A DNA stretch of 37,300 nucleotides from Patescibacteria group bacterium (GCA_038058285.1 JBBUBJ010000006.1:8683-45982); one strand, 5' to 3'; counted from the stretch's first letter, positions 4,929 through 37,078 are shown. The notes: generated by a model from the sequence alone, not told the origin. Numbers and translations are program-made.

Positions 4929-4950
4929 TTTTAAATAATATCATACTCGA

Positions 4951-5004
4951 CCCCACCCCGTCCCGCTAAAGCGGGACCGCCCCTCACCTTGCGAAGGTGA
5001 GGGG
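4951..5004 (-). repeat. Family D composite: CCCCACCCC tail, GTCCCGC-TAAA-GCGGGAC hairpin, CCCCTCACCTT-GCG-AAGGTGAGGGG hairpin
   Basis: Two perfect hairpins at 4960-4977 and 4980-5004. The first shares the GCTAAAGC/GCTTTAGC core with family C. Confidence 0.6.
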
Positions 5005-5034
5005 AAAAACCAAAATTTCAAAATTAACCAAAAA

Positions 5035-5110: not shown

Positions 5111-5482
5111 ATGCTTACTCGAGCTGCTATGAATCGCAGTTTAGGATTACCGCGTGCCCCTGGATCTTGTTTCGGAGTTTCCGATCCAAGATATTTACGG
5201 CCCAACTTCAACAGAAGTCCGCTTCCGTTGCCACAAGCGACCAACAAAAACAAGGCCACGATTACCACCAGATTTTATATTCTGGAATGGTGGAAGAAAA
5301 ACTTCGAGCCAGAACACAGGTCTTTTAGGGCCAAAAACAATGGCCTGGCTGTCATCAAAGCGATGCGCATTCTCGGCATCAAAGGGAAATTGACTGGTCA
5401 CAAGCTCCGCAAAGCCGGAGCGAGCAGAGTTTCTCTCCTCAGCTTTAGCGATGGGGAGATTTTCCCGGGACCCAAGCAGTGA
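5111..5482 (+). CDS. Hypothetical basic protein (orphan); coding status uncertain
   Basis: GGAGGTG lies 7 nt before the ATG, a promoter lies upstream and a terminator downstream. However, the G+C-rich stretch is open in several frames on both strands and the N-terminal half is low-complexity (R/P/S/L-rich). Confidence 0.35.
   Translation: MLTRAAMNRSLGLPRAPGSCFGVSDPRYLRPNFNRSPLPLPQATNKNKATITTRFYILEWWKKNFEPEHRSFRAKNNGLAVIKAMRILGIKGKLTGHKLRKAGASRVSLLSFSDGEIFPGPKQ
5434..5459 (+). repeat. Family C hairpin (stem TCTCC/GGAGA around AGCTTTAGCGA)
   Basis: TCTCCTC-AGCTTTAGCGA-TGGGGAGA. Same loop as 7349-7374 and 12463-12490 but with a different stem. Confidence 0.5.
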
Positions 5483-5501: not shown

Positions 5502-5536
5502 GCGGGCAGGATTCATTCTTGTCCGCTTTGTTTTTT
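5502..5536 (+). terminator. Rho-independent terminator after 5111..5482
   Basis: Stem GCGGGCAGG / CTTGTCCGC (two G-U pairs), followed by TTTGTTTTTT. Confidence 0.6.
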
Positions 5537-6314
5537 ATTTTTCTCCCTTCCCCTTCGCAAGGGGAAGGGTTGGGGGTGAGGTCGTTTTGTTATTTACCGA
5601 ATTTATATACGCGCAATACTCGCAATTAGGGCTTGCTTTTGGAATTTCGTCGTTGTCCAAACATTTTTTCATATCTATCAAAGTTTTTTCTATCCAGTCG
5701 TCTTTGCCTGTGTAAGGAATAATTTTTATATCAAATTCAAGTTTGCCGTCAAAAGCTTCGCGGTCGCGCTTGCCATTTGCATAAACAAAATAACCGGTAT
5801 CAGAAACATTCAAATCATTATGTCGCAAAAGCCACTGATAAACTTCCATCTGTCTTTTGTAACCGTCTTGCCACTCGGCGTCCAAATTTACTTCTTCGTC
5901 TTTGCTTGTGGCTTTATAATCAACCACCATAAGCTGACCGTCTGGACTTTGCCAAATATCATCAACCGCTCCAAAAACTACAAAATTAGTTGGCTCATGA
6001 AATGTCTCAACACCAACAAAATTTTCTCGCCACTTTTCCATACGCGGATCTTGAAAAGGCACGGCGTCTATCCCGTAAGATTCCATAAGCGGGTGCGGGG
6101 TTTTTTGTTTTCGATGAATATCAAATTCTTTTTTGAGAAGCGTATCAACCGCGCTATTTAAGTTAAAAGGAAATCCCTGTGGTCGTGAGACACCAATTCG
6201 CCTGTCCAAATAAAAACATCGCGGACACTCCACAAACAGGTCAATTTTACTTCGGCTCACTTTGAAAAATTCCTTTGCCTTTGGGTCGTATAATTTTTTT
6301 CTATAAAATGCCAT
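5535..6314 (-). CDS. PD-(D/E)XK nuclease, Cas4/RecB-like with terminal Cys pairs
   Basis: N-terminal CPRC, core VVDYK (D-x-K), C-terminal CEYC. The last 15 codons and the stop lie inside a family D repeat. Confidence 0.7.
   Translation of the reverse strand: MAFYRKKLYDPKAKEFFKVSRSKIDLFVECPRCFYLDRRIGVSRPQGFPFNLNSAVDTLLKKEFDIHRKQKTPHPLMESYGIDAVPFQDPRMEKWRENFVGVETFHEPTNFVVFGAVDDIWQSPDGQLMVVDYKATSKDEEVNLDAEWQDGYKRQMEVYQWLLRHNDLNVSDTGYFVYANGKRDREAFDGKLEFDIKIIPYTGKDDWIEKTLIDMKKCLDNDEIPKASPNCEYCAYINSVNNKTTSPPTLPLAKGKGEK
5545..5581 (+). repeat. Family D hairpin + tail (CCCTTCCCCTT-CGC-AAGGGGAAGGG + TTGGGGGTGAGG)
   Basis: Perfect 11-bp stem at 5545-5555 / 5559-5569. The tail matches 12783-12792 and 29854-29865. 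Confidence 0.75.
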
Positions 6315-7155: not shown

Positions 7156-8276
7156 TTTTCTATTATACCACCACCAAGACAAATTTCATTGTCATACAAA
7201 ACCAAAGATTGTCCCGCCGAAACTCCCATTTGTGGTTTGTCAAACTCAACCAACAAGGATGACCCTTGTTGGTTAGGTTTTTGTGGTGTAATTTTGCATG
7301 GAATTTTTTCTTGGCGGTATCTTGTACGACAAAATAATTTTTCTTTAGTCCCGCGAAGCTTTAGCGAAGTGGGATTTATCCAATTTATTTCTGAAATTTC
7401 AAGTGTCAAGGGTCCCCCTTGGCTTTTTGAGTATGGTGTAATTTTGGGAGCGACAGTTATAGTGTTTTTTGAAATGTCTTTAGAAACAACATACAAAGGC
7501 ATTTCATTTTCTGATTTTTTGGTGACAGTGAATCCATGACGTTCGCCTATTGTAAAAAATAAAGCTCCGTTGTGGTGACCTATTTTTTTTCCTTCTAAAT
7601 CCAAAACATCTCCTCTTTTTGTTGGCATATATTGAGCTAAAAATTCTTTCATATCTATTTTACCCAAAAAACAAAGTCCTTGGCTGTCTTTTCTTGTCGC
7701 CTGTGGCAAGCCAAATTTTTCCGCCAACTTTCGTACTTTTGGTTTTTGCAAATGACCTATGGGAAATAAAATATGTTCGAGTTGTTTCTGTGTTAATGTC
7801 CACAAAAAATATGATTGGTCTTTGTTTTTGTCGGCTCCTTCCATTAACCCCACCCTGCCCTCCCCTTGATCAGAGGAGGCAACCGTACGAGCATAATGGC
7901 CAGTAGCAACATATTGAGCGCCATTTTTAAGAGCAAATTTGAGAAAGTGGCCGAATTTTATTTCTTTATTGCACATTACATCAGGATTAGGTGTTCTCCC
8001 TTTTTTATATTCGGCAATCATATAGTCAACCACTTCTTTTTTATATTCTTTTTCCAAGTCAAGAGTAATAAAAGGAATATCCAAAACTGCCGCCACTCTC
8101 ATAGCGCTTCTTCTATCTTCTTTCCAAGTGCAAGGATAACTCGGCGGAGTCCACGCTTTTATAAAAACTCCTGTCACATCATAACTTTCCTTCTTCAGCA
8201 ATGCCGCCGACACAGCGCTATCTACGCCTCCAGAAAGCCCCACATAAACTTTCTTTTTTACTGATTGACTTTTCAT
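7152..8276 (-). CDS. mnmA: tRNA 2-thiouridine(34) synthase MnmA
   Basis: PP-loop SGGVDS, KDQSYFL, TRYRQ and the C-terminal GQS.VLY pattern. Contains family A, B, C and D repeats in-frame. Confidence 0.9.
   Translation of the reverse strand: MKSQSVKKKVYVGLSGGVDSAVSAALLKKESYDVTGVFIKAWTPPSYPCTWKEDRRSAMRVAAVLDIPFITLDLEKEYKKEVVDYMIAEYKKGRTPNPDVMCNKEIKFGHFLKFALKNGAQYVATGHYARTVASSDQGEGRVGLMEGADKNKDQSYFLWTLTQKQLEHILFPIGHLQKPKVRKLAEKFGLPQATRKDSQGLCFLGKIDMKEFLAQYMPTKRGDVLDLEGKKIGHHNGALFFTIGERHGFTVTKKSENEMPLYVVSKDISKNTITVAPKITPYSKSQGGPLTLEISEINWINPTSLKLRGTKEKLFCRTRYRQEKIPCKITPQKPNQQGSSLLVEFDKPQMGVSAGQSLVLYDNEICLGGGIIEK
7248..7295 (+). repeat. Family A hairpin + tail, solo copy inside mnmA
   Basis: AACCAACAAGG-ATGAC-CCTTGTTGGTT + AGGTTTTTGTGGTGTAATTTT. 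Near-identical to 37031-37078. It is 48 nt long and is read on the minus strand as KITPQKPNQQGSSLLV. Confidence 0.85.
7349..7374 (+). repeat. Family C hairpin inside mnmA
   Basis: TCCCGC-GA-AGCTTTAGCGA-A-GTGGGA. Read on the minus strand as PTSLKLRG. Confidence 0.7.
7401..7445 (+). repeat. Family B hairpin + tail inside mnmA
   Basis: AAGTGTCAAGGGTCCCCCTTGGCTTTTTGAGTATGGTGTAATTTT. It is 45 nt long and is read as KITPYSKSQGGPLTL. Near-identical to 12561-12605. Confidence 0.85.
7848..7880 (-). repeat. Family D (short, degenerate) inside mnmA
   Basis: CCCCACCCTGCCCTCCCCTTGATCAGAGGAGGC compared with 14729-14773 (CCCCACCCC...GCCCTCCCCTTGTTCAGGGGAGGG). Read as SDQGEGRVG. Confidence 0.55.
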
Positions 8277-12124: not shown

Positions 12125-12212
12125 ATTTTTAATAATTAATTATACTACAATATTATAACACATTTAATAATGTTCACAATATCATACTCAAAAACTTTGT
12201 CAACCTTTAATA

Positions 12213-14642
12213 TTATACCACAAAATTAACTATTTTATTGAGTACAAAAATAGTCTTTTTTATTTCCTTATCATCAAGCCATTTTTGGACATCTGGCATG
12301 ATTAGCGCTTTTTCTTGGGCTTCTTTTTCGGATATGCCCGTTTCCGCTTCAAACTGAGCCCTCACTTTTCCATTTATTTGAACGACAATAATCACATTTT
12401 CCTCTTTAATTTTTGACTCGTCATATTTTGGCCATTCTTCCAAATGAATTGAAGATTCATTTGCCCCGCATAGCTTTAGCGAAGTGGGGCTGTTCCAAAT
12501 CTCATCCGTCATATGTGGTGCAAAAGGCGCCAGCAATTTCAAAAAAGTTTCAAACATGTCTAGTGTCAAGGGTTCCCCTTGGCTTTTTTGGTGTGGTGTA
12601 ATTTTTTCAAGTTCGTTTAATAAAATCATCATAGCTGAAATAGCAGTATTGAATTTATAATTTTCAATATCTTCTGTTACTTTTTTTATGGTTTTGTGCA
12701 AAAGATTCTCGAGTTTTTTATTACCGACTCCTAACTCCCCCGCCTCGCTCCGCTCGGCACCCCCTCTTAAATTAAGAGGGGGTTTGGGGGTGTTATTCAC
12801 TTTTGCCGCTATCTTCCACACCCTCTCCAAAAATCGGCGAATTCCTACCACTCCTCCCAAATCCCACGGATACTGCCCCGTTTCGTTATATGGTCCTATA
12901 AAAGCCAAATACATTTTGACTGTATCTGATCCGACTTTTTCTACCATTTCATCAGGGTCAACTACATTACCTTTGCTCTTGCTCATCTTTTGTCCGTCTG
13001 GTCCCAAAATAAGAGCTCGATTCATTCTTTTAATAAAAGGCTCTGATTCATTTACCAGTCCCAAATCAAAAAGAGCTTTGTGAAAAAATCTTGAATACAA
13101 AAGATGCATGGTGTTATGTTCAGCTCCGCCGGAATAGCGATTAACCGGCATCCATTTTTTTAGCCTGAGCTTATCGAATGGTTCGTTTTTGTTTTTAGAA
13201 TCGCAGTATCTTAAAAAATACCACGAAGAATCTATAAAAGTATCCATAGTGTCATATTCAGGTTTCCAGCCTTCGCCAAATATTTTCTCTACTCTTTCCC
13301 TCAATTCTTTTGAAGTAGCGATTGGAGATTCGCCTTTGGGTGCAAAATCTTTAACATCTTCAGGCAGAAGCCACGGCAAATTTTCTTTCGGCACAGGATG
13401 CGGCTTTCCTTCCGGATCATAAACTATGGGTATGGGACACCCCCAATATCTCTGGCGCGAAAGCAGCCAGTCCCTCAATTTATATTTTGTTACTTTTTGA
13501 CCAAATTTTTGTAAATCCCAGTCAAGTGTGATTTCTTTTACCGGTAAATTATATTTTTTAGCGAAGTCCATATCTCTTTCGTCATGTGACGGAACCGCCA
13601 TAATTGCTCCCGTGCCATAATTACCCAAAACATAATCAGCCACGAAAACCGGTATCTCCTCCCCATTTGCCGGATTAATCACCTTCACTCCTTTTATTTC
13701 AACCCCCGTTTTTTCTTTCTTTTCATTAGTCCTCTCTATTTCTGTTTTTTGTTTTGTCTGATTTATGTATTTTTGAATTTCTTCTTTGTTTCGGATTTCG
13801 GATTTAGAATTTAGAATTTCTTGCGTGAGCCAAGGATGTTCCGGTGCGACAACAACATAAGTTGCTCCCATTAAAGTATCTGCTCTTGTTGTAAAAACTT
13901 TTATTTTCTCTTTTATTTCGGATTTCGAATTTCGGATTTCGAATTTTAAAACTGTTCCTTCCGACTTCCCAATCCAGTTTTTTTGCGCCGTCTTTATTTC
14001 TTCTGGCCATTTCAAATTATCTAAATCGGAAAGTAGGTCCTCAGCATAATCTGTAATTTTGAAAAACCACTGCTCTAAATCTTTTTGAATAACTTCGGCA
14101 TCGCATCTCTCACACTTCCCCGCCACCACCTGCTCGTTGGCCAGCACCGTATTGCACGACGGGCACCAGTTGACGCTAGCCTTTTTCTTATAAGCCAAAC
14201 CTTTTTCGTAAAGTTTCAAAAACAACCACTGCGTCCATTTATAATATTCCGGGTCGGAAGTGATGACTTTGCGCGACCAGTCAAAGGAATTGCCCATACT
14301 CTGCAGTTGCTTTTCCATGTAGGCAATATTTTCGTAAGTCCACTTGCGCGGGTCCACGCCGTGTTTGATGGCGGCGTTTTCTGCCGGCAATCCGAATGCA
14401 TCAAAACCAATCGGAAACATGACATTGTAACCTTGCATTCTTTTGGTCCGCGCGAAAATATCCGGCACGGCAAAAGCATACCAATGACCTATGTGCAAAT
14501 TGCCCGATGGGTATGGGAACTCTACTAGCGTGTAAAAATTTTCTTTTCCCTTTACTTCATCCTCCGTTTTGTAAAGATTATCTTCCTGCCATTTCTTCTG
14601 CCACTTCTTTTCTATTTCTTTATGATCGTATTTTTCTTGCAT
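12213..14642 (-). CDS. leuS: Leucine--tRNA ligase
   Basis: PYPSGNLHIGH (HIGH motif), KMSKSKGN (KMSKS motif), FTTRADT and the editing domain. Contains family B, C, D and two family E repeats in-frame. Confidence 0.95.
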   Translation of the reverse strand: MQEKYDHKEIEKKWQKKWQEDNLYKTEDEVKGKENFYTLVEFPYPSGNLHIGHWYAFAVPDIFARTKRMQGYNVMFPIGFDAFGLPAENAAIKHGVDPRKWTYENIAYMEKQLQSMGNSFDWSRKVITSDPEYYKWTQWLFLKLYEKGLAYKKKASVNWCPSCNTVLANEQVVAGKCERCDAEVIQKDLEQWFFKITDYAEDLLSDLDNLKWPEEIKTAQKNWIGKSEGTVLKFEIRNSKSEIKEKIKVFTTRADTLMGATYVVVAPEHPWLTQEILNSKSEIRNKEEIQKYINQTKQKTEIERTNEKKEKTGVEIKGVKVINPANGEEIPVFVADYVLGNYGTGAIMAVPSHDERDMDFAKKYNLPVKEITLDWDLQKFGQKVTKYKLRDWLLSRQRYWGCPIPIVYDPEGKPHPVPKENLPWLLPEDVKDFAPKGESPIATSKELRERVEKIFGEGWKPEYDTMDTFIDSSWYFLRYCDSKNKNEPFDKLRLKKWMPVNRYSGGAEHNTMHLLYSRFFHKALFDLGLVNESEPFIKRMNRALILGPDGQKMSKSKGNVVDPDEMVEKVGSDTVKMYLAFIGPYNETGQYPWDLGGVVGIRRFLERVWKIAAKVNNTPKPPLNLRGGAERSEAGELGVGNKKLENLLHKTIKKVTEDIENYKFNTAISAMMILLNELEKITPHQKSQGEPLTLDMFETFLKLLAPFAPHMTDEIWNSPTSLKLCGANESSIHLEEWPKYDESKIKEENVIIVVQINGKVRAQFEAETGISEKEAQEKALIMPDVQKWLDDKEIKKTIFVLNKIVNFVV
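12463..12490 (+). repeat. Family C hairpin inside leuS
   Basis: GCCCCGC-AT-AGCTTTAGCGA-A-GTGGGGC. Read as SPTSLKLCG. Confidence 0.7.
12561..12605 (+). repeat. Family B hairpin + tail inside leuS
   Basis: TAGTGTCAAGGGTTCCCCTTGGCTTTTTTGGTGTGGTGTAATTTT. It is 45 nt long and is read as KITPHQKSQGEPLTL. Confidence 0.85.
12733..12792 (+). repeat. Family D hairpin + tail inside leuS
   Basis: CCCCCTCTTAA-A-TTAAGAGGGGG (12760-12782) plus the TTTGGGGGTG tail, preceded by CCCCCGCCTCGCTCCGCTCGGC. Read as TPKPPLNLRGGAERSEAGE. Confidence 0.7.
13789..13820. repeat. Family E tandem units inside leuS
   Basis: TTTCGGATTTCGGATTTAGAATTTAGAATTTC. Read as EILNSKSEIRN. Confidence 0.7.
13915..13947. repeat. Family E tandem units inside leuS
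   Basis: ATTTCGGATTTCGAATTTCGGATTTCGAATTTT. Read as EIRNSKSEIK. Confidence 0.7.
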
Positions 14643-14677
14643 ATTTTAAATATAACCCATTATACGCTTTTTTTCCA

Positions 14678-14718
14678 GAGGATGACCCTTGAAGAATTTG
14701 CCCCAAAGGGTCATCCTC
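14678..14718. repeat. Family G long hairpin (arms GAGGATGACCCTT / AAGGGTCATCCTC, loop ending TGCCCCA)
   Basis: Perfect 13-bp arms. The arm sequence is related to the family A core GGATGACCCTT. The loop end TGCCCCA-AAGGG is shared with 23151-23205. Confidence 0.7.
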
Positions 14719-14728
14719 AAATTTTTAA

Positions 14729-14773
14729 CCCCACCCCTCGCTTCGCGTAGCCCTCCCCTTGTTCAGGGGAGGG
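14729..14773 (-). repeat. Family D tail + hairpin
   Basis: CCCCACCCC tail, then CTCGCTTCGCGTAG, then stem CCCTCCCCT (14751-14759) / AGGGGAGGG (14765-14773). Confidence 0.7.
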
Positions 14774-14811
14774 AAAAAATCTTGCGGCTCAATCCGGACG
14801 AATTTAGCCGC
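14774..14811 (-). terminator. Probable terminator of the hicB-hicA-14887 operon
   Basis: On the minus strand: GCGGCT...AGCCGC stem (14784-14811) followed by AAGATTTTTT. A second 9-bp hairpin (14812-14841) lies directly upstream. Confidence 0.45.
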
Positions 14812-14846
14812 AACGGCTCAGATGGCAGGAAATGAGCCGTTGAAAA

Positions 14847-14888
14847 ACAAGGATGACCCTTGTACTTGAACAAAGTGTGATGTAATTT
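14847..14888 (+). repeat. Family A, degenerate copy
   Basis: ACAAGGATGACCCTTGT + ACTTGAACAAAGTGTGATGTAATTT. The tail overlaps the TAA stop of 14887..15561. Confidence 0.6.
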
Positions 14889-15561
14889 AAACACTCTCTA
14901 TTATTTTTGTTCTTTCCCAATCAGTGGGAACAATGGCGACAATTCTTTTATTTTCAATATCAATCTGAAAAACCATATCCTTTAATTTCCATCCACGAAT
15001 AACTCCTACCTGTTCAAACTGAGTTTTTAATTCGTTCATTTTATGTTCCGCCTCGTTCATAAGAGTTGCAACATCTTCGTCTGAGTACCCTTTTTCTTTA
15101 AGATTTAAGGTATCTCGTTCAGACCAGCGGATACCGGGTATTCGTTCCATAACAATAATATGTGTTCCTCCTTGTTCTGCTTTGGCAACCGGTTTTGCGG
15201 CGGGTAATCCCATTTGAGCAAGCCGTTCAAGAATTTTATACTCATAAAAATGATCTCCTGATTTACCAACATCTCCTTTGGTAAAATTTACTCGTCTAGC
15301 AACAGTTAAAATTTCTTGATTTTCTGGATTTTTCCAAACAGGTAAATCTTTGACAGCAGTTGGGTCTTCTCGAACTTTTCCCGTTTCATCAACTTTCTTT
15401 TCTCCTGTTTTTATGTTCTTTCCTTCTCTCTCAAAATATCCCGTTGGGTCATCAAGAAATTCTTGAGGCACAAAATTAACAAATTCAGTCTCAACTTCTA
15501 CTTTGGGAATGGGAGTGATTTCTTGAATATTATTTTGTGGATTTGGGGAACTTTCCATCAT
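14887..15561 (-). CDS. Hypothetical protein with weak protein-kinase-like (RIO/Kdo-type) pattern
   Basis: The ORF overlaps the hicA stop by 4 nt. EYKILERLAQMGLPAAKP...HIIVMERIPG resembles the kinase alphaC/hinge, but the catalytic-loop position reads GVIRGWKLKD rather than HGDL..N. Confidence 0.5.
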   Translation of the reverse strand: MMESSPNPQNNIQEITPIPKVEVETEFVNFVPQEFLDDPTGYFEREGKNIKTGEKKVDETGKVREDPTAVKDLPVWKNPENQEILTVARRVNFTKGDVGKSGDHFYEYKILERLAQMGLPAAKPVAKAEQGGTHIIVMERIPGIRWSERDTLNLKEKGYSDEDVATLMNEAEHKMNELKTQFEQVGVIRGWKLKDMVFQIDIENKRIVAIVPTDWERTKIIESV

Positions 15562-15797
15562 TTAATTATTTTTCTTAAGAATTCTTCTCTATCTATTTCT
15601 GCCAAGTCCAGTACCCCTTGAAGAGTACCTATCGCCAATTCCTTATGATTAGGAACTATTGTAGTGATTTTTCTGCCAGCGACAATTTTCTGACATTTAA
15701 TGTGACTACCCCTTTGTTTAATTACAGAAAAGCCAAAATATTTAATTAAAATTTTTACTACTTCCTTACTCCCAAGTATTTTTCTTTTTTTAGGCAT
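15558..15797 (-). CDS. hicA: HicA-family toxin (YcfA-like mRNA interferase)
   Basis: GFSVIKQRGSHIKC...TIVPNHKELAIGTLQGVL matches the HicA GSH / VP.H / GTL pattern. 79 aa. Confidence 0.8.
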   Translation of the reverse strand: MPKKRKILGSKEVVKILIKYFGFSVIKQRGSHIKCQKIVAGRKITTIVPNHKELAIGTLQGVLDLAEIDREEFLRKIIK

Positions 15798-16008
15798 AAC
15801 TTACTTCAAAAGATGTAATAATTGAAGCTTCCGGAGAAATATTTTTAGTTGCCTCTTCGTTGTCTTCAAGATAAAGTTCAACCGCTTCTTTCAAATTTTC
15901 TGTTGCTTCTTCTATAGTTTTTCCTTGACTGACAACACCAAGCTCAAGGCATTTTGCAACATACCATTTCCCCTCCTTATTTATTGCTGTAGTAAATGTT
16001 TTAGTCAT
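15790..16008 (-). CDS. hicB: HicB-family antitoxin (UPF0150 fold, no DNA-binding extension)
   Basis: EGKWYVAKCLELGVVSQGKTIEEATENLKEAVELYLE is the typical HicB N-domain pattern. Overlaps hicA by 8 nt. Confidence 0.75.
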   Translation of the reverse strand: MTKTFTTAINKEGKWYVAKCLELGVVSQGKTIEEATENLKEAVELYLEDNEEATKNISPEASIITSFEVSYA

Positions 16009-16047
16009 ATGAGTATTTTATAACTACTACTAAAATAAATCAAGATT

Positions 16048-18807: not shown

Positions 18808-19797
18808 TTAATTTATTTCGGATTTCGTGCTTCGGATTTCGGATTTATATTCCTCAACTGCTGGCTGATCATAAGGATCCACCCCAAGCAGTTTTGCCAG
18901 TTCTATTGTTGTTGCCATCATAAAAGCCATAAAACTTCCTAGTTCTTTTTCATTTATTTCTGCCATTTCATATTTTATAAAAGGTAGGCCGGCTTTTTGA
19001 TAAGCGTCGGTAACATTTTCAAAAGCAGTTTGATTTATATTATTTTGATTTTCTTTAAGAGATAGAATAAAAATAGTAAATCGGTTTTTAGGTCCGCCCA
19101 AATAAAGTTCCAGCATAGAATGCAAATCTACCGGACCAATGGAAACAGTCGGAGTAATTAAAGAAATACTTTCGGCTATAAGCTGGCGGCACCACTTGCC
19201 CAAATCCTCCAACTCCGAATTAAAAATAAAAAAATCTAAAATATTAAAATCATTTTTGTAATTATCAAAAATATTTCGAGCCAAATGTTTTGTTTCTTCT
19301 TCTTTTATTTCTTTACTCCCAATAATAAAATTTTCTACATCCAAACCGGCGATGGATAAAACAGTAGTGTGAGCAACAGTAAAAGCGCTAAATCGTCCGC
19401 CAGTATTTCCTTCCCATTCTATTTTTTCAGCCTCTTTTTCTTCAGCTATTTTCCAAAGTGTAGAATTGGGAGTTGATATTATAAGTATTCTTTCATTTAT
19501 AGTGTCAAAGGGCATCTTTGACATTATTTCAAAAATTTTATTAAAAGTTTCCAAAGTTTCTGCTGTTTCGCCAGATTTACTCACAACAATCAAAACAAAA
19601 TCTTCCAACTTTTTTATTTCGTTTTCTACTATATTTTCTATTTCCTCATATTCTCGCTCATCTGGCGATTCTAAAAAATATATTTTCTTGTCTGTTTTTT
19701 TGTGCAGAGTTATAGCATCCCAAACCGCTTTGCTTGCCAAATCGGAACCGCCTATGCCTATTACAAAAATGTATTTTGATTTTTTAAATTTTTCCAT
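18808..19797 (-). CDS. pgi: Glucose-6-phosphate isomerase-like SIS protein (short type)
   Basis: IFVIGIGGSDLASKAV and SKSGETAET motifs. I prefer the ATG at 19797 because the ORF-track extension runs through a terminator. The C-terminal KSEIRSTKSEIN comes from a family E repeat. Confidence 0.65.
   Translation of the reverse strand: MEKFKKSKYIFVIGIGGSDLASKAVWDAITLHKKTDKKIYFLESPDEREYEEIENIVENEIKKLEDFVLIVVSKSGETAETLETFNKIFEIMSKMPFDTINERILIISTPNSTLWKIAEEKEAEKIEWEGNTGGRFSAFTVAHTTVLSIAGLDVENFIIGSKEIKEEETKHLARNIFDNYKNDFNILDFFIFNSELEDLGKWCRQLIAESISLITPTVSIGPVDLHSMLELYLGGPKNRFTIFILSLKENQNNINQTAFENVTDAYQKAGLPFIKYEMAEINEKELGSFMAFMMATTIELAKLLGVDPYDQPAVEEYKSEIRSTKSEIN
18815..18846. repeat. Family E tandem units at the pgi 3' end
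   Basis: ATTTCGGATTTCGTGCTTCGGATTTCGGATTT. It supplies the last codons before the pgi stop (18808-18810). Confidence 0.7.
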
Positions 19798-21957: not shown

Positions 21958-23787
21958 TTACTTTTTTCCAGCTTTAACTCTCTCCAATTCGGTCAGAAGT
22001 TTTTTGCGGAGGCGGACAGATTTGGGAGTGATTTCCAAATATTCATCTTCCGCCATAATTTCCAGACCGCTTTCAATAGTGATAGGCGTCGGTGGAGCCA
22101 AATAAATTTTATCGTCCGAACCGGAGGCGCGCATATTTGTAAGTTGTTTGCCCTTGGTTGGATTGACCGTCAACTCGTCGCCCTTGGATGTGTTGCCTAT
22201 AACCATACCCTCGTAAACTTCTGTTGTTGGACCAATATATAAAGTGCCTCGAGTTTGCAAATTATCAAGAGCGAAAGCTAATGCTTTGCCGTTGGCCATT
22301 GAAGTCATTGAGCCAGTCGCTTTTTTTTGTATTTCACCGGCGTAGGAACGAAAACCAACAACTCTGGTACCCAAAATTCCCTCGCCTTTTGTATCAACAA
22401 CAAACTGATTTCTATAACCCAAAAGTCCTCGAGTCGGCCCTTCAAAAATTAAACGCACATGATTGTTGTGGTGTTTTGTGTTTGTCATAATCGCTCCTCT
22501 TTTTCCTAACTTTTCAATAACCACTCCTTGCATTTCTTCCGGCACATCTATAGTTACTTCTTCAAAAGGTTCGCTTTTTATTCCATAAATTTCTTTTATA
22601 ATAACCTGTGGTTGAGAAACTTGCATTTCAAACCCCTCTCTTCTCATGTTTTCAAGTAGGATGGCAATGTGCAGTTCTCCTCGCCCGTAAACTTTCATCT
22701 CATCTTGACCAAAATCAACTTTAAGTCCTACATTCACTTCCAACTCTTTTTCAAGTCGCTCTCTAATTTGACGACTGTTGACATATTTTCCTTCCCGTCC
22801 CCCAAAAGGCGAATTATTAACCAAGAAATTTACAGCTATGGTTGGTTCGTCTACATTTATTGCCGGCAAACTTTCTGTTTCCGGATTGTCTGTTATTGTG
22901 TCGCCTATATAAATGTTAGGTAGGCCGGCAATCATGGCAATGTCCCCAGTTTCCACTTCTTTTGATTCTTTTCTAGCTACGCCTTCAAATGTAAAAATTT
23001 TTGTAATTTTACCTTCCTCTATTTTGCCATCCGTTTTTTTAACAAAAACTTTTTGACCGTTTTTTATTGTGCCCTCATAAATTCTGACTATGGCCATTCT
23101 GCCCAAAAAATTATCATAAGCCAAATTAAAAGGTTGTGCTCGCAGTGGTTCCTGCCAAGGGGAACCCTTAAACTGCTCCTGCCCCAAAGGGTTCCCCTTG
23201 GCAGGATTAGCAGGAATAACTTTTTCCAAAATAGTATCAAGCAAAGGTTTTATACTTTCCTTTTTATCATTCAAATTTTTTATTACAATTCCTTCTCTGG
23301 CGACAGCATGAAGAGTTGTAAAATTTAATTGTTCTTCGGTGGCATCAAGGTCAAAGAACAACTCAAAAATTTCGGCAAGGGTAGTTTTAATCCTGTTAAT
23401 GTCGGCACCGGGACGATCAATTTTATTTAAAACAACGATTGGTTTGTGACCTATTTCCAAAGATTTTTTCAAAACAAAACGAGTCTGAGGCATAGGCCCT
23501 TCTTGAGCATCAACAACCAAAATAACCGAATCAATGGATCTTAAAATTCTTTCAACTTCACTTCCAAAGTCGGCATGTCCCGGTGTATCTACTATATTTA
23601 TTTTGGTGTCTTTATATATGACAGAAGCGTTTTTGGAATAAATAGTAATGCCACGTTCTTTTTCAAGTGCGTTTGTATCCATTGAAAATCCTTCCTCGCT
23701 AAAACCTGTTTGCTTCAAAATAGCATCCGTCAACGCTGTTTTGCCGTGGTCCACATGGGCTATGATTGCTATGTTTCGTATTTCCAT
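21958..23787 (-). CDS. typA: Translational GTPase TypA/BipA
   Basis: IRNIAIIAHVDHGKT, DTPGHADF, NKID, and the C-terminal BipA-specific domain. I prefer the ATG at 23787. Contains a 55-nt hairpin in-frame. Confidence 0.9.
   Translation of the reverse strand: MEIRNIAIIAHVDHGKTALTDAILKQTGFSEEGFSMDTNALEKERGITIYSKNASVIYKDTKINIVDTPGHADFGSEVERILRSIDSVILVVDAQEGPMPQTRFVLKKSLEIGHKPIVVLNKIDRPGADINRIKTTLAEIFELFFDLDATEEQLNFTTLHAVAREGIVIKNLNDKKESIKPLLDTILEKVIPANPAKGNPLGQEQFKGSPWQEPLRAQPFNLAYDNFLGRMAIVRIYEGTIKNGQKVFVKKTDGKIEEGKITKIFTFEGVARKESKEVETGDIAMIAGLPNIYIGDTITDNPETESLPAINVDEPTIAVNFLVNNSPFGGREGKYVNSRQIRERLEKELEVNVGLKVDFGQDEMKVYGRGELHIAILLENMRREGFEMQVSQPQVIIKEIYGIKSEPFEEVTIDVPEEMQGVVIEKLGKRGAIMTNTKHHNNHVRLIFEGPTRGLLGYRNQFVVDTKGEGILGTRVVGFRSYAGEIQKKATGSMTSMANGKALAFALDNLQTRGTLYIGPTTEVYEGMVIGNTSKGDELTVNPTKGKQLTNMRASGSDDKIYLAPPTPITIESGLEIMAEDEYLEITPKSVRLRKKLLTELERVKAGKK
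23151..23205. repeat. Family G long hairpin inside typA
   Basis: Perfect 19-nt arms CCTGCCAAGGGGAACCCTT / AAGGGTTCCCCTTGGCAGG around AAACTGCTCCTGCCCCA. The arm core equals the family B stem. Read as PAKGNPLGQEQFKGSPWQ. Confidence 0.85.
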
Positions 23788-30971: not shown

Positions 30972-31058
30972 GTTACGCAAAAAAGCGTCAGATGGATTGT
31001 AGCAAAATTATAATGATTTAACCATTAGTGTTTTCTAATCCTAGAATGATACTGAGGT

Positions 31059-31646
31059 CTATTGCGCTAACGCAGCCGCCACATTTACCAATCCATATCC
31101 ATATTGGTTGTCGCGACTAGCAGTTCCCAACTCTTGGGCAGTGGAGTTCATTATTGCTCTTACTTCGTCATTAATGCGTCTGTTGAGGTTAGTATCTCTA
31201 ACCCCCGTTGCTATAACAAGTGCCGCAACACCTGCGACATGAGGCGAGGCCATTGAAGTGCCGGAACCGTATTTGTAGCAACCGCCATCCGAGCGATTGC
31301 ATTTCGGTTGTGGAGTAGAGTAACTGGTATTATCGTTCCATGTTGAATATACAGACACCCCTGGTGCTACCAGTTCCACCTTGGGACCGGTGCTTGAGAA
31401 GCTTGCGCGTTTATTGGTAGAATCAATGGCGCCAACGGCAATCACTGAATCAAATTTTGCCGGATAAATAACATTGTCTCCCGTGCCTGCGCCGATGCGC
31501 TTCACACCCCATGAATTATCAAGTTCAGCATCAGTGGCATATACAGTATCATCAAGGTCAATAGAGGCAACATGCGGATTGCGAGACAATCCCTCAATAG
31601 CTTTAGCTGGTATCGTAGCGGCGATAGCGTCCACAATTTTTTTCAT
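31059..31646 (-). pseudogene. Subtilisin-like (S8) protease remnant lacking the Asp/His part of the catalytic core
   Basis: It keeps the end of an I9-type propeptide (AIEGLSRNPHVASIDLDDTVYA), WGVKRIGA, the VIAVGA..D....RASFSS.GP..E..APG block and GTSMASPHVAG. The D-T-G and H-G-T-H regions between them are absent. There is no signal peptide and no SD. Confidence 0.6.
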
Positions 31647-31664
31647 AGAATTAATCTTTATTAT

Positions 31665-32372
31665 TTAATAATTATCTGCCACAAATCTCTTACCTTTAAA
31701 AAGTAGCCACAACGCGCCCACTAAAATTACCAGTTCGGACCAAAAGTCCCATTGGAACCACCATTGGCTAAGCAGTTCTATTCTGGTAAATCTGGAATAA
31801 TATCCCCCGGTCGGGTCTATGTTAAAGAATAAAAACGAGAAATGTCCAAGCATTAAAAACGCCGTAAATATTACTCCGCCGATTAGTATAAGCTTATAGC
31901 TTCTTGATATTTGCGGGGCTGACTTTGTCAGAAACAAGATGCCAAACAACAAAGCTAAAACTGTTGTATCCGTACTGTGAACATTAAGAAAGTCCCATAA
32001 AAGTTGTGGCCAAACATGAATGTTGCCGGTTCCAAGAGGAAGTTCAAAACTCTTCATTCCAAAAACAGAATATCCGTCTTTGTATGGTAGCCAAATCTCC
32101 TGAACAACAATCATTGTTATTATAATCAGAAAAAGAAAAGCTCCCGCTAAAATCCATTTCCAATTCGTGTCTCTTTTCAAATTCAAGCTTGGCCTGAATA
32201 TTTCGTATGCCAAGCCGGCAAGAATAACAAGAAAGCCAATCCACGGAGGACCGTAACTTATTGACGGAACATCTCCCAAATTTATTTTCGTCCATGTAGG
32301 CATCCAAAGTAATAGCAATAAAACTATCACAAAGAAAATAAACGCAAAAATACGATTTGAAGCATTGCTCAT
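31665..32372 (-). CDS. Multi-pass membrane protein (6-7 helices)
   Basis: 235-aa ORF dominated by hydrophobic helices and rich in Trp/Phe. Confidence 0.7.
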   Translation of the reverse strand: MSNASNRIFAFIFFVIVLLLLLWMPTWTKINLGDVPSISYGPPWIGFLVILAGLAYEIFRPSLNLKRDTNWKWILAGAFLFLIIITMIVVQEIWLPYKDGYSVFGMKSFELPLGTGNIHVWPQLLWDFLNVHSTDTTVLALLFGILFLTKSAPQISRSYKLILIGGVIFTAFLMLGHFSFLFFNIDPTGGYYSRFTRIELLSQWWFQWDFWSELVILVGALWLLFKGKRFVADNY

Positions 32373-32504
32373 ATTTTTTAATTATATCAAAATTTGATAT
32401 ACTATGTCCACCAAATTTGATTTATAGACGAAGGTTGATTTTCTTTTTATTTTGCAGTACTGTAATCTTAGATTCAAAAAATCCTTAATCAATGGAGGTG
32501 CGCA

Positions 32505-32861
32505 ATGAGATGTATTAAAGGGCTACGCGACATTAATACCCACGGCACGCTTGCCAGAGAAGGGCGATTGGTGGGTGTCGCAAGAGATTTGCATCGAATC
32601 GAAAGAAGAAGCGGATTTTCGGGAAATGAGTCCTGGAATGGGAGTGTTGATAACATGGTGTTTAAGAAAAGCGCAAAGACGCAAAGACTCCCCCATGATT
32701 TATTCCAAGAACTCGTCTTAAAGAAGAAGATTCAAAACGCGCTAGTTCAACAAATTCAAGAGTCCATTGCCGAAATGGAAATGTTTGCGGGCGAAGGAGT
32801 AGCCGGGGCTCTTGCCGAGCTTCAACGTCTCGGAACGAAACTCTCACGATTAGTAAAGTGA
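32505..32861 (+). CDS. Hypothetical protein with helical/coiled-coil C-terminus (orphan)
   Basis: GGAGGTG (32494-32500) lies before the ATG and a perfect 14-bp terminator stem follows. Looks G+C-rich by eye. Confidence 0.5.
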   Translation: MRCIKGLRDINTHGTLAREGRLVGVARDLHRIERRSGFSGNESWNGSVDNMVFKKSAKTQRLPHDLFQELVLKKKIQNALVQQIQESIAEMEMFAGEGVAGALAELQRLGTKLSRLVK

Positions 32862-32883
32862 GGGTATGCGAGGGTGCGATATC

Positions 32884-32920
32884 ATCCGCATGGACAAGTT
32901 TGTCCATGCGGATTTATTTG
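32884..32920 (+). terminator. Rho-independent terminator after 32505..32861
   Basis: ATCCGCATGGACAA (32884-32897) / TTGTCCATGCGGAT (32900-32913), followed by TTATTTG. Confidence 0.7.
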
Positions 32921-34422: not shown

Positions 34423-35721
34423 ATGTTTGGCATTGGCGACAAAAAAATATCCACCGAAAGCTACAAGGGAGTGCGGGATTTTTATCCAGCCGACCAGGCG
34501 GTACAAGACTATATATTTGGAGTGATGAGCAAAGTAGCGCGCTCTTGGGGTTATGATGAATATAGCGCTTCTGTTTTGGAACCGCTGGAGCTTTATAAAT
34601 CAAAGACCAGCGAGGAAATTGTTAACGAGCAAATTTATTCTTTTGAAGATCGTGGCGGTCGCGAAGTGGCTTTGAGACCGGAGATGACGCCGACGGTAGC
34701 CAGAATGATTGCCGCTAAAATTCAAGAACTCCCTTCCCCTATCCGATGGTATTCAATTCCAAATGTTTTTAGATATGAGAAACCTCAGCGGGGCAGATTG
34801 CGTGAACACTGGCAGTTGAATGTTGATATGTTTGGGGTGGCTAATCCGTTTGCCGATGCCGAAGTTATTTCACTGGCTTCAGACATAATGAAAAAATTTG
34901 GAGCTGATAATAAAGATTTTCAAATTAGAATAAATAGCCGAAGTCTTTTGGATGATGTTTTAGAAAAAATAAATATAGACAAAGACCAAAAACAATTTGT
35001 TTATAGGCTGATAGATAAAAAAGAAAAAATGTCTGATGATAAATTCAGAGATTCTCTGACAGCTTTAATACAAAAAGAAAAAGCCGAAGATCTTATAAGA
35101 ACACTTTATTTGGGCGAGGGTTTGCTTGTTGAAATGAATGAAAGCCTGGCGGCCAAATATCTAAACCAAGTTGTTGAAATATTAAGAAACCGGGGTGTTA
35201 ATAATTTGATTTTTGAACCATCCCTGACTCGTGGTTTTGATTATTATACAGGTGTGGTTTTTGAAGTCTTTGACACCAACAAAGAAAATCCACGCTCTCT
35301 TTTTGGCGGGGGTCGTTATGACGATTTGGTAGGCTCGTTTATCGGCCAATCAATTCCGGCTTTTGGTTTTGGTATGGGAGATGTGACCATTAAAGATTTT
35401 TTGGAGGTTCACAATTTGTTGCCCAAAATAGATTCCACAACCGATATTTATATTTGTGTAGCACCCGAAACAGATTTGGAAGAAATTTACAAAATAGCTG
35501 AAACTTTAAAAAGCAAAAATGTAAATGTGGCGGTTGATATTTCAGGCAAAAAATTATCCGATCAACTAAAATCTTTAGATAAAAGAAAAATTCCTTTTGT
35601 TATGACTATTGGTTCGCAAGAAATAAAAAGTCAAAAATTTGTAATAAGGAATACAAACACGAGAAAAGAAGAAAGCGGCAATTTAGATGAAATAATCTCT
35701 TTTATTCGCAGCAATTCGTAA
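34423..35721 (+). CDS. hisS: Histidine--tRNA ligase
   Basis: GVRDFYP, LRPEMT, FRYEKPQRGRLREHWQ (class II motif 2), GGGRYD (motif 3), and the C-terminal anticodon-binding domain. Confidence 0.9.
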   Translation: MFGIGDKKISTESYKGVRDFYPADQAVQDYIFGVMSKVARSWGYDEYSASVLEPLELYKSKTSEEIVNEQIYSFEDRGGREVALRPEMTPTVARMIAAKIQELPSPIRWYSIPNVFRYEKPQRGRLREHWQLNVDMFGVANPFADAEVISLASDIMKKFGADNKDFQIRINSRSLLDDVLEKINIDKDQKQFVYRLIDKKEKMSDDKFRDSLTALIQKEKAEDLIRTLYLGEGLLVEMNESLAAKYLNQVVEILRNRGVNNLIFEPSLTRGFDYYTGVVFEVFDTNKENPRSLFGGGRYDDLVGSFIGQSIPAFGFGMGDVTIKDFLEVHNLLPKIDSTTDIYICVAPETDLEEIYKIAETLKSKNVNVAVDISGKKLSDQLKSLDKRKIPFVMTIGSQEIKSQKFVIRNTNTRKEESGNLDEIISFIRSNS

Positions 35722-36317: not shown

Positions 36318-36321
36318 AATT

Positions 36322-36372
36322 AATCAAACCAACAAAGATGACCTTTGTGGTTTGATTAGTGTGGTATAATTT
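36322..36372 (+). repeat. Family A hairpin + tail, left flank of transposase-like gene
   Basis: AATCAAACCAACAAAG-ATGAC-CTTTGTGGTTTGATT + AGTGTGGTATAATTTT. The stem carries a compensatory A-T pair where other copies have G-C. Confidence 0.8.
36362..36370 (+). promoter_or_regulatory. Extended -10 box TGGTATAAT formed by the repeat tail, 6 nt before ATG 36377
   Basis: TGGTATAAT-TTTGAT-ATG. No SD is possible. Confidence 0.5.
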
Positions 36373-36376
36373 TGAT

Positions 36377-37027
36377 ATGAAAAATAGGGATTATAAAAAT
36401 TTTGCTAAGGGAGAAATTTATCATGTTTATAATAGAGGGGTGAATAAAGCAGATATTTTTAAGACTCAGAAAGATTATGAGGTTTTTCTATCCCGTTTAA
36501 AAGAAAATTTATTTCCTGAATTTGTAGATAAAAAGAAATTATCTTGGTTGGAAAAACGCAGAAAATTACTTCCCCCAAACTCTTTTGATTTAATATGTTA
36601 TTGTCTTATGCCGAATCATTTTCATTTACTTATTCAACAAAAAACAGATTTACCCATAACCAAATTAATATCTAAAATATGTACAAGTTATGCAATATGT
36701 TTTAACAAAAAACATGGGAGAGTTGGGGCGGTTTTTCAGGACCAATTTAAGGCTGTATTAGTTGAAAACAATGAACAACTTTTATGGACATCTTATTATA
36801 TTCATAAAAACCCAACAGAAGCAGATATTGTAATAAATCTCAAAGATTATAAATGGGGCAGCTATTCGGAATATTTTGATAAGGAAAATAGTTTTAAATT
36901 ATGTAAAAAAGATATTATTACTAAACAGTTTAATTCCGAAAAGCAATATTTAAAGTATTTTGATGATAAAGAAAATGATGAAATGACTTCTTTGAGAGAT
37001 TTTTATTTTGATTTTAGCGAGGATTAA
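36377..37027 (+). CDS. IS200/IS605-family Y1 (HUH) transposase-like protein, RAYT-like (copy 2)
   Basis: GEIYHVYNRGVNK, HUH motif MPNHFHLL, YIHKNP with Tyr. I prefer the ATG at 36377 because the GTG at 36359 in the ORF track lies inside the repeat. Confidence 0.8.
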   Translation: MKNRDYKNFAKGEIYHVYNRGVNKADIFKTQKDYEVFLSRLKENLFPEFVDKKKLSWLEKRRKLLPPNSFDLICYCLMPNHFHLLIQQKTDLPITKLISKICTSYAICFNKKHGRVGAVFQDQFKAVLVENNEQLLWTSYYIHKNPTEADIVINLKDYKWGSYSEYFDKENSFKLCKKDIITKQFNSEKQYLKYFDDKENDEMTSLRDFYFDFSED

Positions 37028-37030
37028 CAA

Positions 37031-37078
37031 AACCAACAAGGATGACCCTTGTTGGTTGGCTAAGTGTGGTGTAATTTT
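37031..37078 (+). repeat. Family A hairpin + tail, right flank of transposase-like gene
   Basis: AACCAACAAGG-ATGAC-CCTTGTTGGTT + GGCTAAGTGTGGTGTAATTTT, starting 4 nt after the stop codon. Confidence 0.85.

Follow-up and report, generated by a model that had tools for sequence, protein, structure and literature searches.

Palindromic repeats lying in frame within protein genes have been described in several systems. The Rickettsia palindromic elements (RPEs; Ogata et al. 2000) are in-frame palindromic repeats of ~150 bp, according to the review PMC10969869. Repetitive extragenic palindromes (REPs), whose classical superfamilies are defined by a GTAG or CGTC head, also occur inside genes, and such intragenic GTAG/CGTC copies encode 20-30 aa in Opitutus terrae, in R. 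conorii and in DNA-repair genes (PMC3733652). The genes for REP-associated tyrosine transposases (RAYTs) are flanked by REPs or by unrelated terminal repeats (PMC3733652). In Coxiella, QMITE1/2, which are transposable elements of the miniature inverted-repeat kind (MITEs), fuse in-frame to open reading frames (ORFs), and MITEs are typically 100-400 bp long (PMC5896051). A preliminary description of 37,300 nt of DNA from a Patescibacteria group bacterium (GCA_038058285.1 JBBUBJ010000006.1:8683-45982; the whole stretch is called the window below) had reported that its leuS gene, encoding leucyl-tRNA synthetase (LeuRS), carries five in-frame segments of four short repeat families, B, C, D and E. 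It had named the RPEs as the precedent and knew of no equivalent in Patescibacteria. The analogy with RPEs was upheld, and the precedent proved broader, because intragenic REPs are documented outside Rickettsia (PMC3733652). We found no literature linking MITEs, REP doublets forming hairpins (REPINs) or RAYTs with Patescibacteria, which is not proof of absence. The analysis presented here indicates that the leuS segments are probably copies or fragments of selfish repeats of the REP, REPIN or MITE type, lodged in permissive linkers and loops of the enzyme.

The LeuRS encoded in the window has both class I signatures intact, the HIGH-type motif (NLHIGHWY) and KMSKS, and its nearest named relatives belong to the Zambryskibacteria and Paceibacterota. 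An identical LeuRS was called on 20 contigs from independent Hainich groundwater metagenome assemblies, so the repeats in leuS are not an assembly artefact. The modules, in order of coordinates, are C, B, D, E2 and E1, and all are in frame:

12213-14642, minus strand: leuS coding sequence, 809-aa leucyl-tRNA synthetase, host of five modules.
12456-12498, minus strand: family C module in leuS, a small hairpin CCCCGC..AGCTTTAGCGAAG..GTGGGG, read NSPTSLKLCGANE.
12548-12605, plus strand (antisense to leuS): family B module, hairpin GTCAAGGGTTCCCCTTGGC, T-run and box GTGTGGTGTAATTTT, read KITPHQKSQGEPLTL.
12732-12795, no strand assigned: full-length family D element, TAACTCCCCC, second arm, CCCCCTCTTAAATTAAGAGGGGG, GGGGGTGTTA, read NNTPKPPLNLRGGAERSEAGEL.
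13789-13820, minus strand: E2 copy of family E, a 7-nt repeat (GAAATYC / TAAATTC) in 4.6 units, read EILNSKSEIRN.
13915-13947, minus strand: E1 copy of family E, a 7-nt repeat in 4.6 units, read FEIRNSKSEI.

The encoded peptides lay within 1-2 nt of where they had been placed before: SPTSLKLCG (family C) corresponds to LeuRS residues 718-726 (~12465-12491), KITPHQKSQGEPLTL (family B) to residues 680-694 (exactly 12561-12605) and TPKPPLNLRGGAERSEAGE (family D) to residues 618-636 (12735-12791), with EIRNSKSEI at 13915-13947 (E1) and LNSKSEIRN at 13789-13820 (E2). The same nucleotide modules recurred outside leuS, as the preliminary description had also claimed, in mnmA (B and C), typA (B), pgi (E) and intergenic DNA, where the copies belong to the box family. 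The latter comprises B and a sibling family, D1, which have the 15-nt box GTGTGGTGTAATTTT in common. The copies in these places are the following:

7243-7295, plus strand: D1-family module in mnmA, hairpin CCAACAAGGATGACCCTTGTTGG and box, read KITPQKPNQQGSSLLVEF.
7341-7383, minus strand: family C module in mnmA, read NPTSLKLRG.
7388-7445, plus strand: family B module in mnmA, read KITPYSKSQGGPLTL.
18815-18846, minus strand: family E array in the last codons of pgi, giving the PGI C-terminus KSEIRSTKSEIN and the stop.
23151-23205, no strand assigned: inverted doublet of the family B hairpin core, REPIN-like, in typA, read PAKGNPLGQEQFKGSPWQEP, net +14 aa.
14837-14889, plus strand: intergenic D1-family module between a 224-aa gene and leuS.
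14678-14718, no strand assigned: inverted doublet of the D1 hairpin core, GAGGATGACCCTT ... AAGGGTCATCCTC, in the leuS upstream region.
5441-5465, plus strand: a degenerate copy resembling C, with 3 mismatches in 17, close to the 3' end of a hypothetical ORF of 123 aa.

Recurrence within the window was well above expectation. The B modules of leuS (12548-12605) and mnmA (7388-7445) were 84% identical over 58 nt (E = 3e-12) and the C modules (12456-12498 and 7341-7383) 79% identical over 43 nt (E = 4e-5), and the 16-nt B hairpin core occurred twice, inverted, in typA. The 15-nt box gave 9 matches with up to 3 mismatches versus 1.9 expected, a number reached by none of 100 shuffles; the C 17-mer gave 3 matches versus 0.08 expected, and the E unit 9 versus 0.3, in three arrays (two in leuS, one in pgi). 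No second D copy was found within the window. In total, these 37 kb of the genome hold six B/D1 modules and two doublets, about half of them intragenic. Folding predicted a compound hairpin for D (-37.7 kcal/mol, z = -4.3) and a ~20-bp stem for the typA insert (-44.7 kcal/mol, z = -5.0). The hairpins of B, C and D1 are shorter, the B/D1 stems measuring 6-15 bp and D1 at 7243, 36311 and 37022 giving z-scores, as DNA, of -3.3 to -5.0; the E tracts were without structure (z = +0.1 to +0.5). A search of the window against Rfam returned two tRNAs only at the gathering threshold, and for 12200-14900 chance-level matches only (E up to 10). Clusters of GC-rich CCCCTC...GAGGGG-type hairpins were also present in intergenic DNA (4940-5022, 5527-5580 and 14678-14790; the genome has ~38% GC), and the 250-nt leuS upstream region folded at -93 kcal/mol (z = -5.7).

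Comparison with relatives revealed sites empty of modules. The syntenic contig L126 shares the gene order of the window, its TypA is 89% identical, and its LeuRS, TypA, PGI and MnmA are all without modules; BLASTN for the modules in 22 kb of L126 found none. Relative to L126, the LeuRS of the window has gained four residues at E1, four at E2, 19 at D, five at B and seven at C, whereas TypA has gained 14, PGI seven (at its C-terminus) and MnmA two, two and five. Replacement of the residues already there, rather than plain displacement, was seen at E1 and at the B and C modules of mnmA. The modules themselves were conserved as DNA. A LeuRS that is 57% identical to that of the window (L007, labelled Saccharibacteria) carries D and B at the same positions, and neither has diverged at the nucleotide level: identity was 91% for D, with 18 of 19 third positions identical (95%), and 80% for B, with 12 of 15 (80%). 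Gene-wide, the two leuS genes share 61% of nucleotides and 44% of third positions, and in the protein-conserved blocks flanking the modules third-position identity was 50-52%. Likewise, C was 90% identical to its counterpart in the closest relative, L125, with 11 of 13 third positions conserved versus 54% gene-wide. Because identity at third positions lies far above that of the gene and the flanks, the conserved unit is the DNA module and not an ancestral peptide. The 3' part of the L007 leuS might be recombinant, but the regional identities are compatible with ordinary domain conservation.

The families also occupied different sites in different enzymes. Among 120 LeuRS relatives, D occupied its own site in P0010 and P0019 but that of E1 in P0013, P0035 and P0038, E-type tracts stood at the E1, E2 or D site (the last in P0003 and P0052), C was present in five and B-type peptides in three. 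Taken together, the further copies (B, C and E in the window, D and B/D1 in other genomes), the empty sites of L126 and the synonymous conservation bore out the earlier claim that the modules are not LeuRS-specific and are read in frame in the manner of RPEs. The caveat entered with that claim, namely that the sites are variable loops, the net length change is small and replacement may be involved, was borne out by gains of 4 to 19 aa and by the replacements at E1 and at B and C in mnmA. In several relatives (P0018, P0024, P0028, P0048 and L047, the last at residues ~240-420 of its LeuRS) the E1 site holds a whole DUF559 / PF04480 + PF18741 endonuclease-like domain, and this site, the first hairpin of the editing domain, looks like a general insertion hot spot. 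Many LeuRS relatives have C-terminal NUDIX or alpha/beta-hydrolase fusions.

An AlphaFold2 model of the LeuRS, built from a 37-sequence alignment, had a mean predicted local distance difference test (pLDDT) score of 79.6. The score dropped under 50 in three stretches and nowhere else, namely at 619-639 (D), 685-688 (B) and 721-727 (C), and E1 and E2 were modelled at ~76-84. Mapped onto the LeuRS of T. thermophilus, E1 is the first beta-hairpin of the editing domain, E2 a loop within the same domain, D the linker into the anticodon-binding domain, and B and C are loops of the C-terminal part. The mapping suggested in the preliminary description placed D, B and C in linkers and loops. The alignment to T. 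thermophilus LeuRS skips residues ~362-409 and ~580-636 of the latter (residues ~371-380 and 547-552 of the LeuRS of the window); the LeuRS of the window is therefore without part of the editing-domain region and the leucine-specific domain. Tryptic peptides predicted inside or across the modules include ITPHQK, SQGEPLTLDMFETFLK, VNNTPKPPLNLR and SEAGELGVGNK.

Every intragenic copy inspected was in frame and free of stops, namely the five in leuS, three in mnmA, those in typA, pgi, Dus, ArgRS and MurB and those in the hosts of D. B/D1 modules were read through in ArgRS, in MurB and, at one and the same site in two organisms, in Dus, all of these hosts being Pfam-verified, with a further copy in MnmA (L171) identified by reading the sequence, and all three antisense frames were used (KITPH, KNYTT and KLHHT). 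A C module in the Dus gene of L203 (878-905) lies in the opposite orientation, is read SRGALTKWG and is absent from the L144 orthologue; the L203 gene carries a B module as well. The phenomenon is broader than the four families of leuS. In other Patescibacteria, the genes for LepA (L079), RecG (L122) and MnmA (L171) each contain three or four different hairpin-encoded inserts, e.g., NPPHPSFTKEGD, SPPDGRAGASGG and PQPLPKGKGL.

The orientation of the intragenic copies was biased. In leuS, the B hairpin with its T-run scored as an intrinsic terminator in antisense to the gene but not in sense, and across loci 19 intragenic B/D1 copies were antisense versus eight sense; four inspected sense cases were chance matches (e.g., native SecY) or spurious ORFs. 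Intergenic solo copies were divided ~1:1 between the orientations. As the intergenic copies show no bias, selection inside genes explains the antisense excess better, and we infer that the bias arose from selection against termination of the host mRNA rather than from the insertion mechanism. Replication-strand bias was set aside as the source of the excess for the same reason. An antisense-promoter reading of the B box was rejected too, as the intragenic boxes have TGTAAT and were not scored as promoters.

Evidence for an enzyme came from the B/D1 family. At 24 kb from leuS, two D1 modules in direct orientation, 705 nt apart, bracket a gene for a RAYT-like protein:

36321-36373, plus strand: D1-family module directly 5' of the RAYT-like gene; its box, GTGTGGTATAATTTT, contains TATAAT and forms an extended -10.
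36377-37027, plus strand: RAYT-like HUH Y1 transposase gene, 216 aa.
37026-37078, plus strand: D1-family module 3' of the RAYT-like gene, box with TGTAAT.

The 216-aa protein matched Pfam PF01797 (IS200-like, E = 9e-10) and has the HUH motif PNHFHLL and the tyrosine motif YIHKNP, in which H81, H83 and Y141 were invariant across 40 homologues. A sequence search of the PDB gave no match. Its structural model (pLDDT 83) was closest in fold to the E. coli RAYT in complex with a REP hairpin (4ER8; E = 1.9e-6, target-normalised TM-score 0.67), which ranked ahead of the IS200, IS608 and ISDra2 transposases. Homologues are abundant in Patescibacteria (3987 at E up to 1e-5, some labelled RayT by JGI), and many were found on contigs of 1-3 kb, which would fit a multicopy element, a point that is only suggestive.

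A metagenome scan for the hairpin plus box returned 95 stretches with 87 distinct copies, many of them from the same groundwater site. A RAYT-like ORF was present in 16 of the 95, and the module abutted the ORF in 15 of these 16, versus a RAYT-like ORF at one of 118 family D loci. Two modules ~700 nt apart enclose the RAYT-like gene in L135, L193 and L196, and a B-type hairpin forms its 5' flank in L212, L216 and L217. The box directly 5' of the gene was TGTGGTATAAT, an extended -10 with TATAAT, in all nine cases, whereas the boxes of solo copies had TGTAAT (58) or TATAAT (12). Solo copies end in a sharp 3' boundary after TAATTTT. In the window, 8 nt separate the end of the TATAAT in the extended -10 from the ATG of the RAYT-like gene (36359-36379). 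The gene is seemingly leaderless, as no Shine-Dalgarno sequence fits between the two. Promoters of this lineage use TGTGGTATAAT elsewhere, e.g., upstream of a sigma-factor gene at 12209-12223 on the minus strand. The RAYT-like gene is the likely copying enzyme for B/D1.

The four families differ in kind, and D is a cross-phylum element family separate from B/D1. Its 23-nt core, CCCCCTCTTAAWTTAAGAGGGGG, occurred in at least 118 stretches of a species-representative genome collection, for which we estimate well under one match by chance. The hosts comprised Nitrospirota, Thermodesulfobacteriota and 'Deltaproteobacteria', metagenome-assembled genomes labelled Gammaproteobacteria, KSB1 and many Patescibacteria (among them Amesbacteria, Doudnabacteria, Saccharibacteria and Zambryskibacteria), i.e., at least five phylum-level groups with near-identical cores. 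The core was also present in six predicted viral contigs of IMG/VR (L222-L227), twice in one of them; the C core was not found in viral contigs. The D element measures 49-78 nt and consists of TAACTCCCCC, a hairpin and GGGGGCGTTA, laid out as TAAC[T/G]CCCCC, a spacer or second arm, the core hairpin and GGGGG[A/C]GTTA. Strict patterns detected terminal inverted repeats in 62-67 of 123 copies, and 43 of 67 share the same terminal mismatch, TAACT...CGTTA or, reversed, TAACG...AGTTA. The TA at both ends is part of the consensus, and the flanking dinucleotides are not conserved. Copies inside ORFs of at least 150 aa (49/123) are read ..PPL(N/K)LRGG.. in host proteins that include a UvrD-like helicase, DnaG, LepA, AlaRS and RecG (Pfam-verified) and LeuRS, MnmA and IF2 (recognised by eye).

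The literature yielded no mention of PPLNLRGG-type peptides, and a 40-aa tandem D-peptide query against a set of 5.8 billion proteins gave one, irrelevant match. In the screen of the 118 D loci, which covered RAYT-like ORFs only, the single association (L055) did not have D on both sides; with no second D copy there, the link was judged incidental. An integron attC reading of the TAAC...GTTA ends was likewise discarded: the flanks misfit RYYYAAC / GTTRRRY, and the copies are dispersed and intragenic, with no cassette arrays.

Family E also has relatives in other phyla. Over 37 nt, the E copy in pgi shared 89% identity (E = 1e-7) with one arm of a ~150-nt imperfect palindrome, E1 and E2 matched the arms of the same palindrome at 75-91% identity over 23-51 nt, and the E-related palindrome was found in loci of Thermodesulfobacteriota and 'Deltaproteobacteria', where the arm reads AAATCCGAAGCACGAAATYCGAAAYAA. 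In view of these arm matches, the E copies of the window are single-arm fragments or slippage tracts of a second cross-phylum family.

By analogy with the movement of REPs by RAYT and of IS200/IS608 ends by TnpA, the B/D1 hairpins would be moved as single-stranded DNA by the Y1 enzyme. The repeats would land in, or overwrite, permissive loops of LeuRS, and the copies that survive would be those that keep the frame, contain no stop, lie in a surface loop and do not form, with hairpin and T-run, a terminator on the mRNA. For LeuRS itself the elements would be neutral passengers, translated, as the sequence implies, as floppy surface loops.

Several observations weigh against this explanation by selfish repeats, beginning with the fact that such translation is a prediction from the sequence. 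E2 overlaps I283 and N285, nearly invariant and invariant, respectively, in the 37 aligned LeuRS, and its codons in L125 are (AAATCTC)x3. E2 is therefore a native 7-nt-periodic motif lengthened by ~4 residues, not a clean insert, and the earlier count of five in-frame segments of four repeat families stood for all of them with this amendment, that E2 is partly conserved LeuRS. Element lengths are not multiples of three (49-78 nt in D) and net length changes are small, so that simple insertion is inadequate and the loops must have been remodelled or replaced. No target-site duplication has been established for D, and no enzyme was linked to D, C or E. For B/D1, the orientation of the RAYT-like gene relative to the flanking modules varies between loci, no GTAG or CGTC head was present in any copy read, and the best NCBIfam match of the protein, NF047646 (REP-associated tyrosine transposase), reached 49 bits versus a cut-off of 80. 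The same D sub-variant stands at the same linker in two LeuRS, both labelled Saccharibacteria (L007 and L047), that are 47-57% identical to that of the window; this shared site needs an added explanation, be it a hot spot, lateral exchange or conversion. Finally, no module differed in presence or absence among six strain contigs of 99.0-99.98% identity, so there is no sign of ongoing mobility and the modules are fixed.

The strain contigs provided some further details. Three single-nucleotide polymorphisms (7269, 7275 and 7277) in the D1 module of mnmA separate the strains of L002-L004 and L006, and the other modules in coding genes were invariant. Apparent insertions of 100-155 nt in L002-L006 proved to be N runs from scaffolding; the 100-nt N runs at ~10996-11095 in L002-L004 and ~1874-1973 in L006 have 55-nt duplicated ends.

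Much of this contrary evidence would suit copying without transposition, through gene conversion, microhomology-mediated template switching or recombination with imported DNA, with intergenic hairpins as donors and the RAYT-like gene merely standing beside its own promoter/terminator cassette. Replacement-like events with small net change and no target-site duplication would then be expected, as would the sharing of D and B variants, site for site, by distant LeuRS and the lack of polymorphism among strains. The B hairpin is moreover similar to what L125 has at the orthologous site (GTGTCAAGGGGCATCTTTGACAC), and the box doubles as the extended -10 promoter of the lineage (TGTGGTATAAT). We nevertheless consider this unlikely, given that the module abuts RAYT-like genes at 15 of 16 loci, often on both sides, as in REPtrons and IS200-type elements, and that solo copies share the sharp boundary after TAATTTT. 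The termini of D are also defined, and the conserved mismatch that 43 of 67 copies have there speaks for recognition of a strand in folded form.

Retention of the hairpins for a function, as antisense promoters or terminators, as structures that stabilise mRNA or direct RNase processing, or as ribosome pauses that aid LeuRS folding, appears improbable. Most orthologues, including the LeuRS of L126, do without modules, which are found in unrelated genes and in intergenic DNA in both orientations; the intragenic boxes, being TGTAAT, have no A at position 2 of the -10 and were not scored as promoters, and the E tracts are unstructured. On the other side stand the strength of the structures (-37.7 kcal/mol, z = -4.3 for D; -44.7 kcal/mol, z = -5.0 for the typA doublet) and the position of the sites at domain boundaries (the start of the editing domain, the anticodon-binding linker and the loops of the C-terminal part), where relatives carry different hairpin-type inserts. 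The conserved synonymous positions and the fixation in the population would also agree with a function.

Still less probable is that the segments are ancestral, lineage-specific loops of LeuRS whose likeness to sequences elsewhere is coincidence or compositional bias. In favour of this reading, E2 aligns with a K-S-x-I-x-N motif of all 37 aligned LeuRS and the same codons are 7-nt periodic, with another unit, in L125; all sites, moreover, are variable loops with small net length change. For B, C, D and E1, however, this reading is already contradicted by the repeat statistics, the empty L126 sites, the same modules in unrelated proteins, the same families at different sites in different LeuRS and synonymous conservation far above the flanks. 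Removal of the segments before the mature protein, as an intron-like RNA, by ribosome bypassing or as an intein, can be practically dismissed: the hairpins are stable, and in Magnusiomyces mitochondria ribosomes bypass GC-rich hairpins inserted into coding sequence ('byp' elements), but all inspected copies are in frame and stop-free, which neither bypassing nor splicing would need, a group I/II intron or an intein would be much longer than these segments, and no Rfam family matches.

The surroundings of leuS contain a few further features. Three genes, for a HicA toxin, a DUF7387 protein and a protein of 223 aa, separate a DUF5671 gene from leuS (14887-16040), and the DUF5671 gene and leuS are adjacent in L126 (9994-10001). 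The cumulative GC skew has its minimum at ~31-32 kb, and genes run on the minus strand up to ~32.4 kb and on the plus strand thereafter (31000-32900); a replication origin may lie near 31-32 kb. The ORF at 34423-35721 encodes HisRS, not DnaA.

Patescibacteria genomes are among the most reduced known, and yet, if the modules are read as selfish repeats, short DNA of that kind probably lies in essential genes of this one, with a candidate enzyme for one family. They offer a testable source for many puzzling lineage-specific insertions in Patescibacteria housekeeping proteins, and alignments, phylogenies and structure predictions should be made with such inserts masked. If the spread of D was horizontal, the family could be used to follow DNA exchange in groundwater communities, and B/D1, with hairpin, T-run and promoter-like box, would be a compact case for the co-evolution of repeat and transposase. 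A wider proposal is put forward tentatively, as we regard it as possible rather than probable: Patescibacteria and their neighbours might share a class of coding-tolerant hairpin elements, undescribed and spreading horizontally as mobile DNA, of which D crosses phyla, its conserved mismatch marking the strand, and at least one family is driven by RAYT-like Y1 enzymes. Such elements might repeatedly colonise the same loops of LeuRS, AlaRS, ArgRS, MnmA, LepA, IF2, DnaG and RecG and be a main source of the lineage-specific insertions that give housekeeping proteins of the candidate phyla radiation (CPR) their unusual look.

Among described systems, the modules resemble RPEs in being in frame in unrelated protein genes, in encoding peptides where the fold tolerates them and in having non-coding copies as well. 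They differ in size (32-64 nt versus the ~150 bp given in PMC10969869) and in phylum, and the likeness drawn here is one of description; moreover, one family here has a candidate Y1 transposase and one, D, is shared across phyla. With REPs and REPINs they have in common the form of short imperfect palindromes, which occur singly or, as in typA, in inverted doublets, and with REP-RAYT systems a RAYT-like HUH Y1 gene flanked by repeat copies. In contrast to the latter, there is no GTAG/CGTC head, an extra 15-nt box is present that forms an extended -10 when 5' of the gene, the flanking copies are direct and not inverted, about half of the window copies are intragenic, and the protein falls below the curated RAYT cut-off. 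The ~760-nt unit, with a Y1 gene between same-strand subterminal hairpins and no terminal inverted repeats, also recalls IS200/IS605 elements (TnpA Y1; 2F4F, 2A6O and 2XM3), and solo hairpins could be miniatures derived from their ends; however, the fold and family matches favour RAYT, and the protein has 216 aa versus roughly 130-150 aa. D resembles MITEs in its TA-ended terminal inverted repeats, its stable internal hairpin and its in-frame extension or interruption of ORFs, often near C-termini, but it is shorter (49-78 nt versus 100-400 bp), has a conserved mismatch in the terminal stem, occurs in several phyla, and has no target-site duplication shown and no parent insertion sequence found in the screen for RAYTs. 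It is the module architecture, the direct flanking copies, the size, the host phylum and the cross-phylum D and E families that set this case apart from the systems already known.

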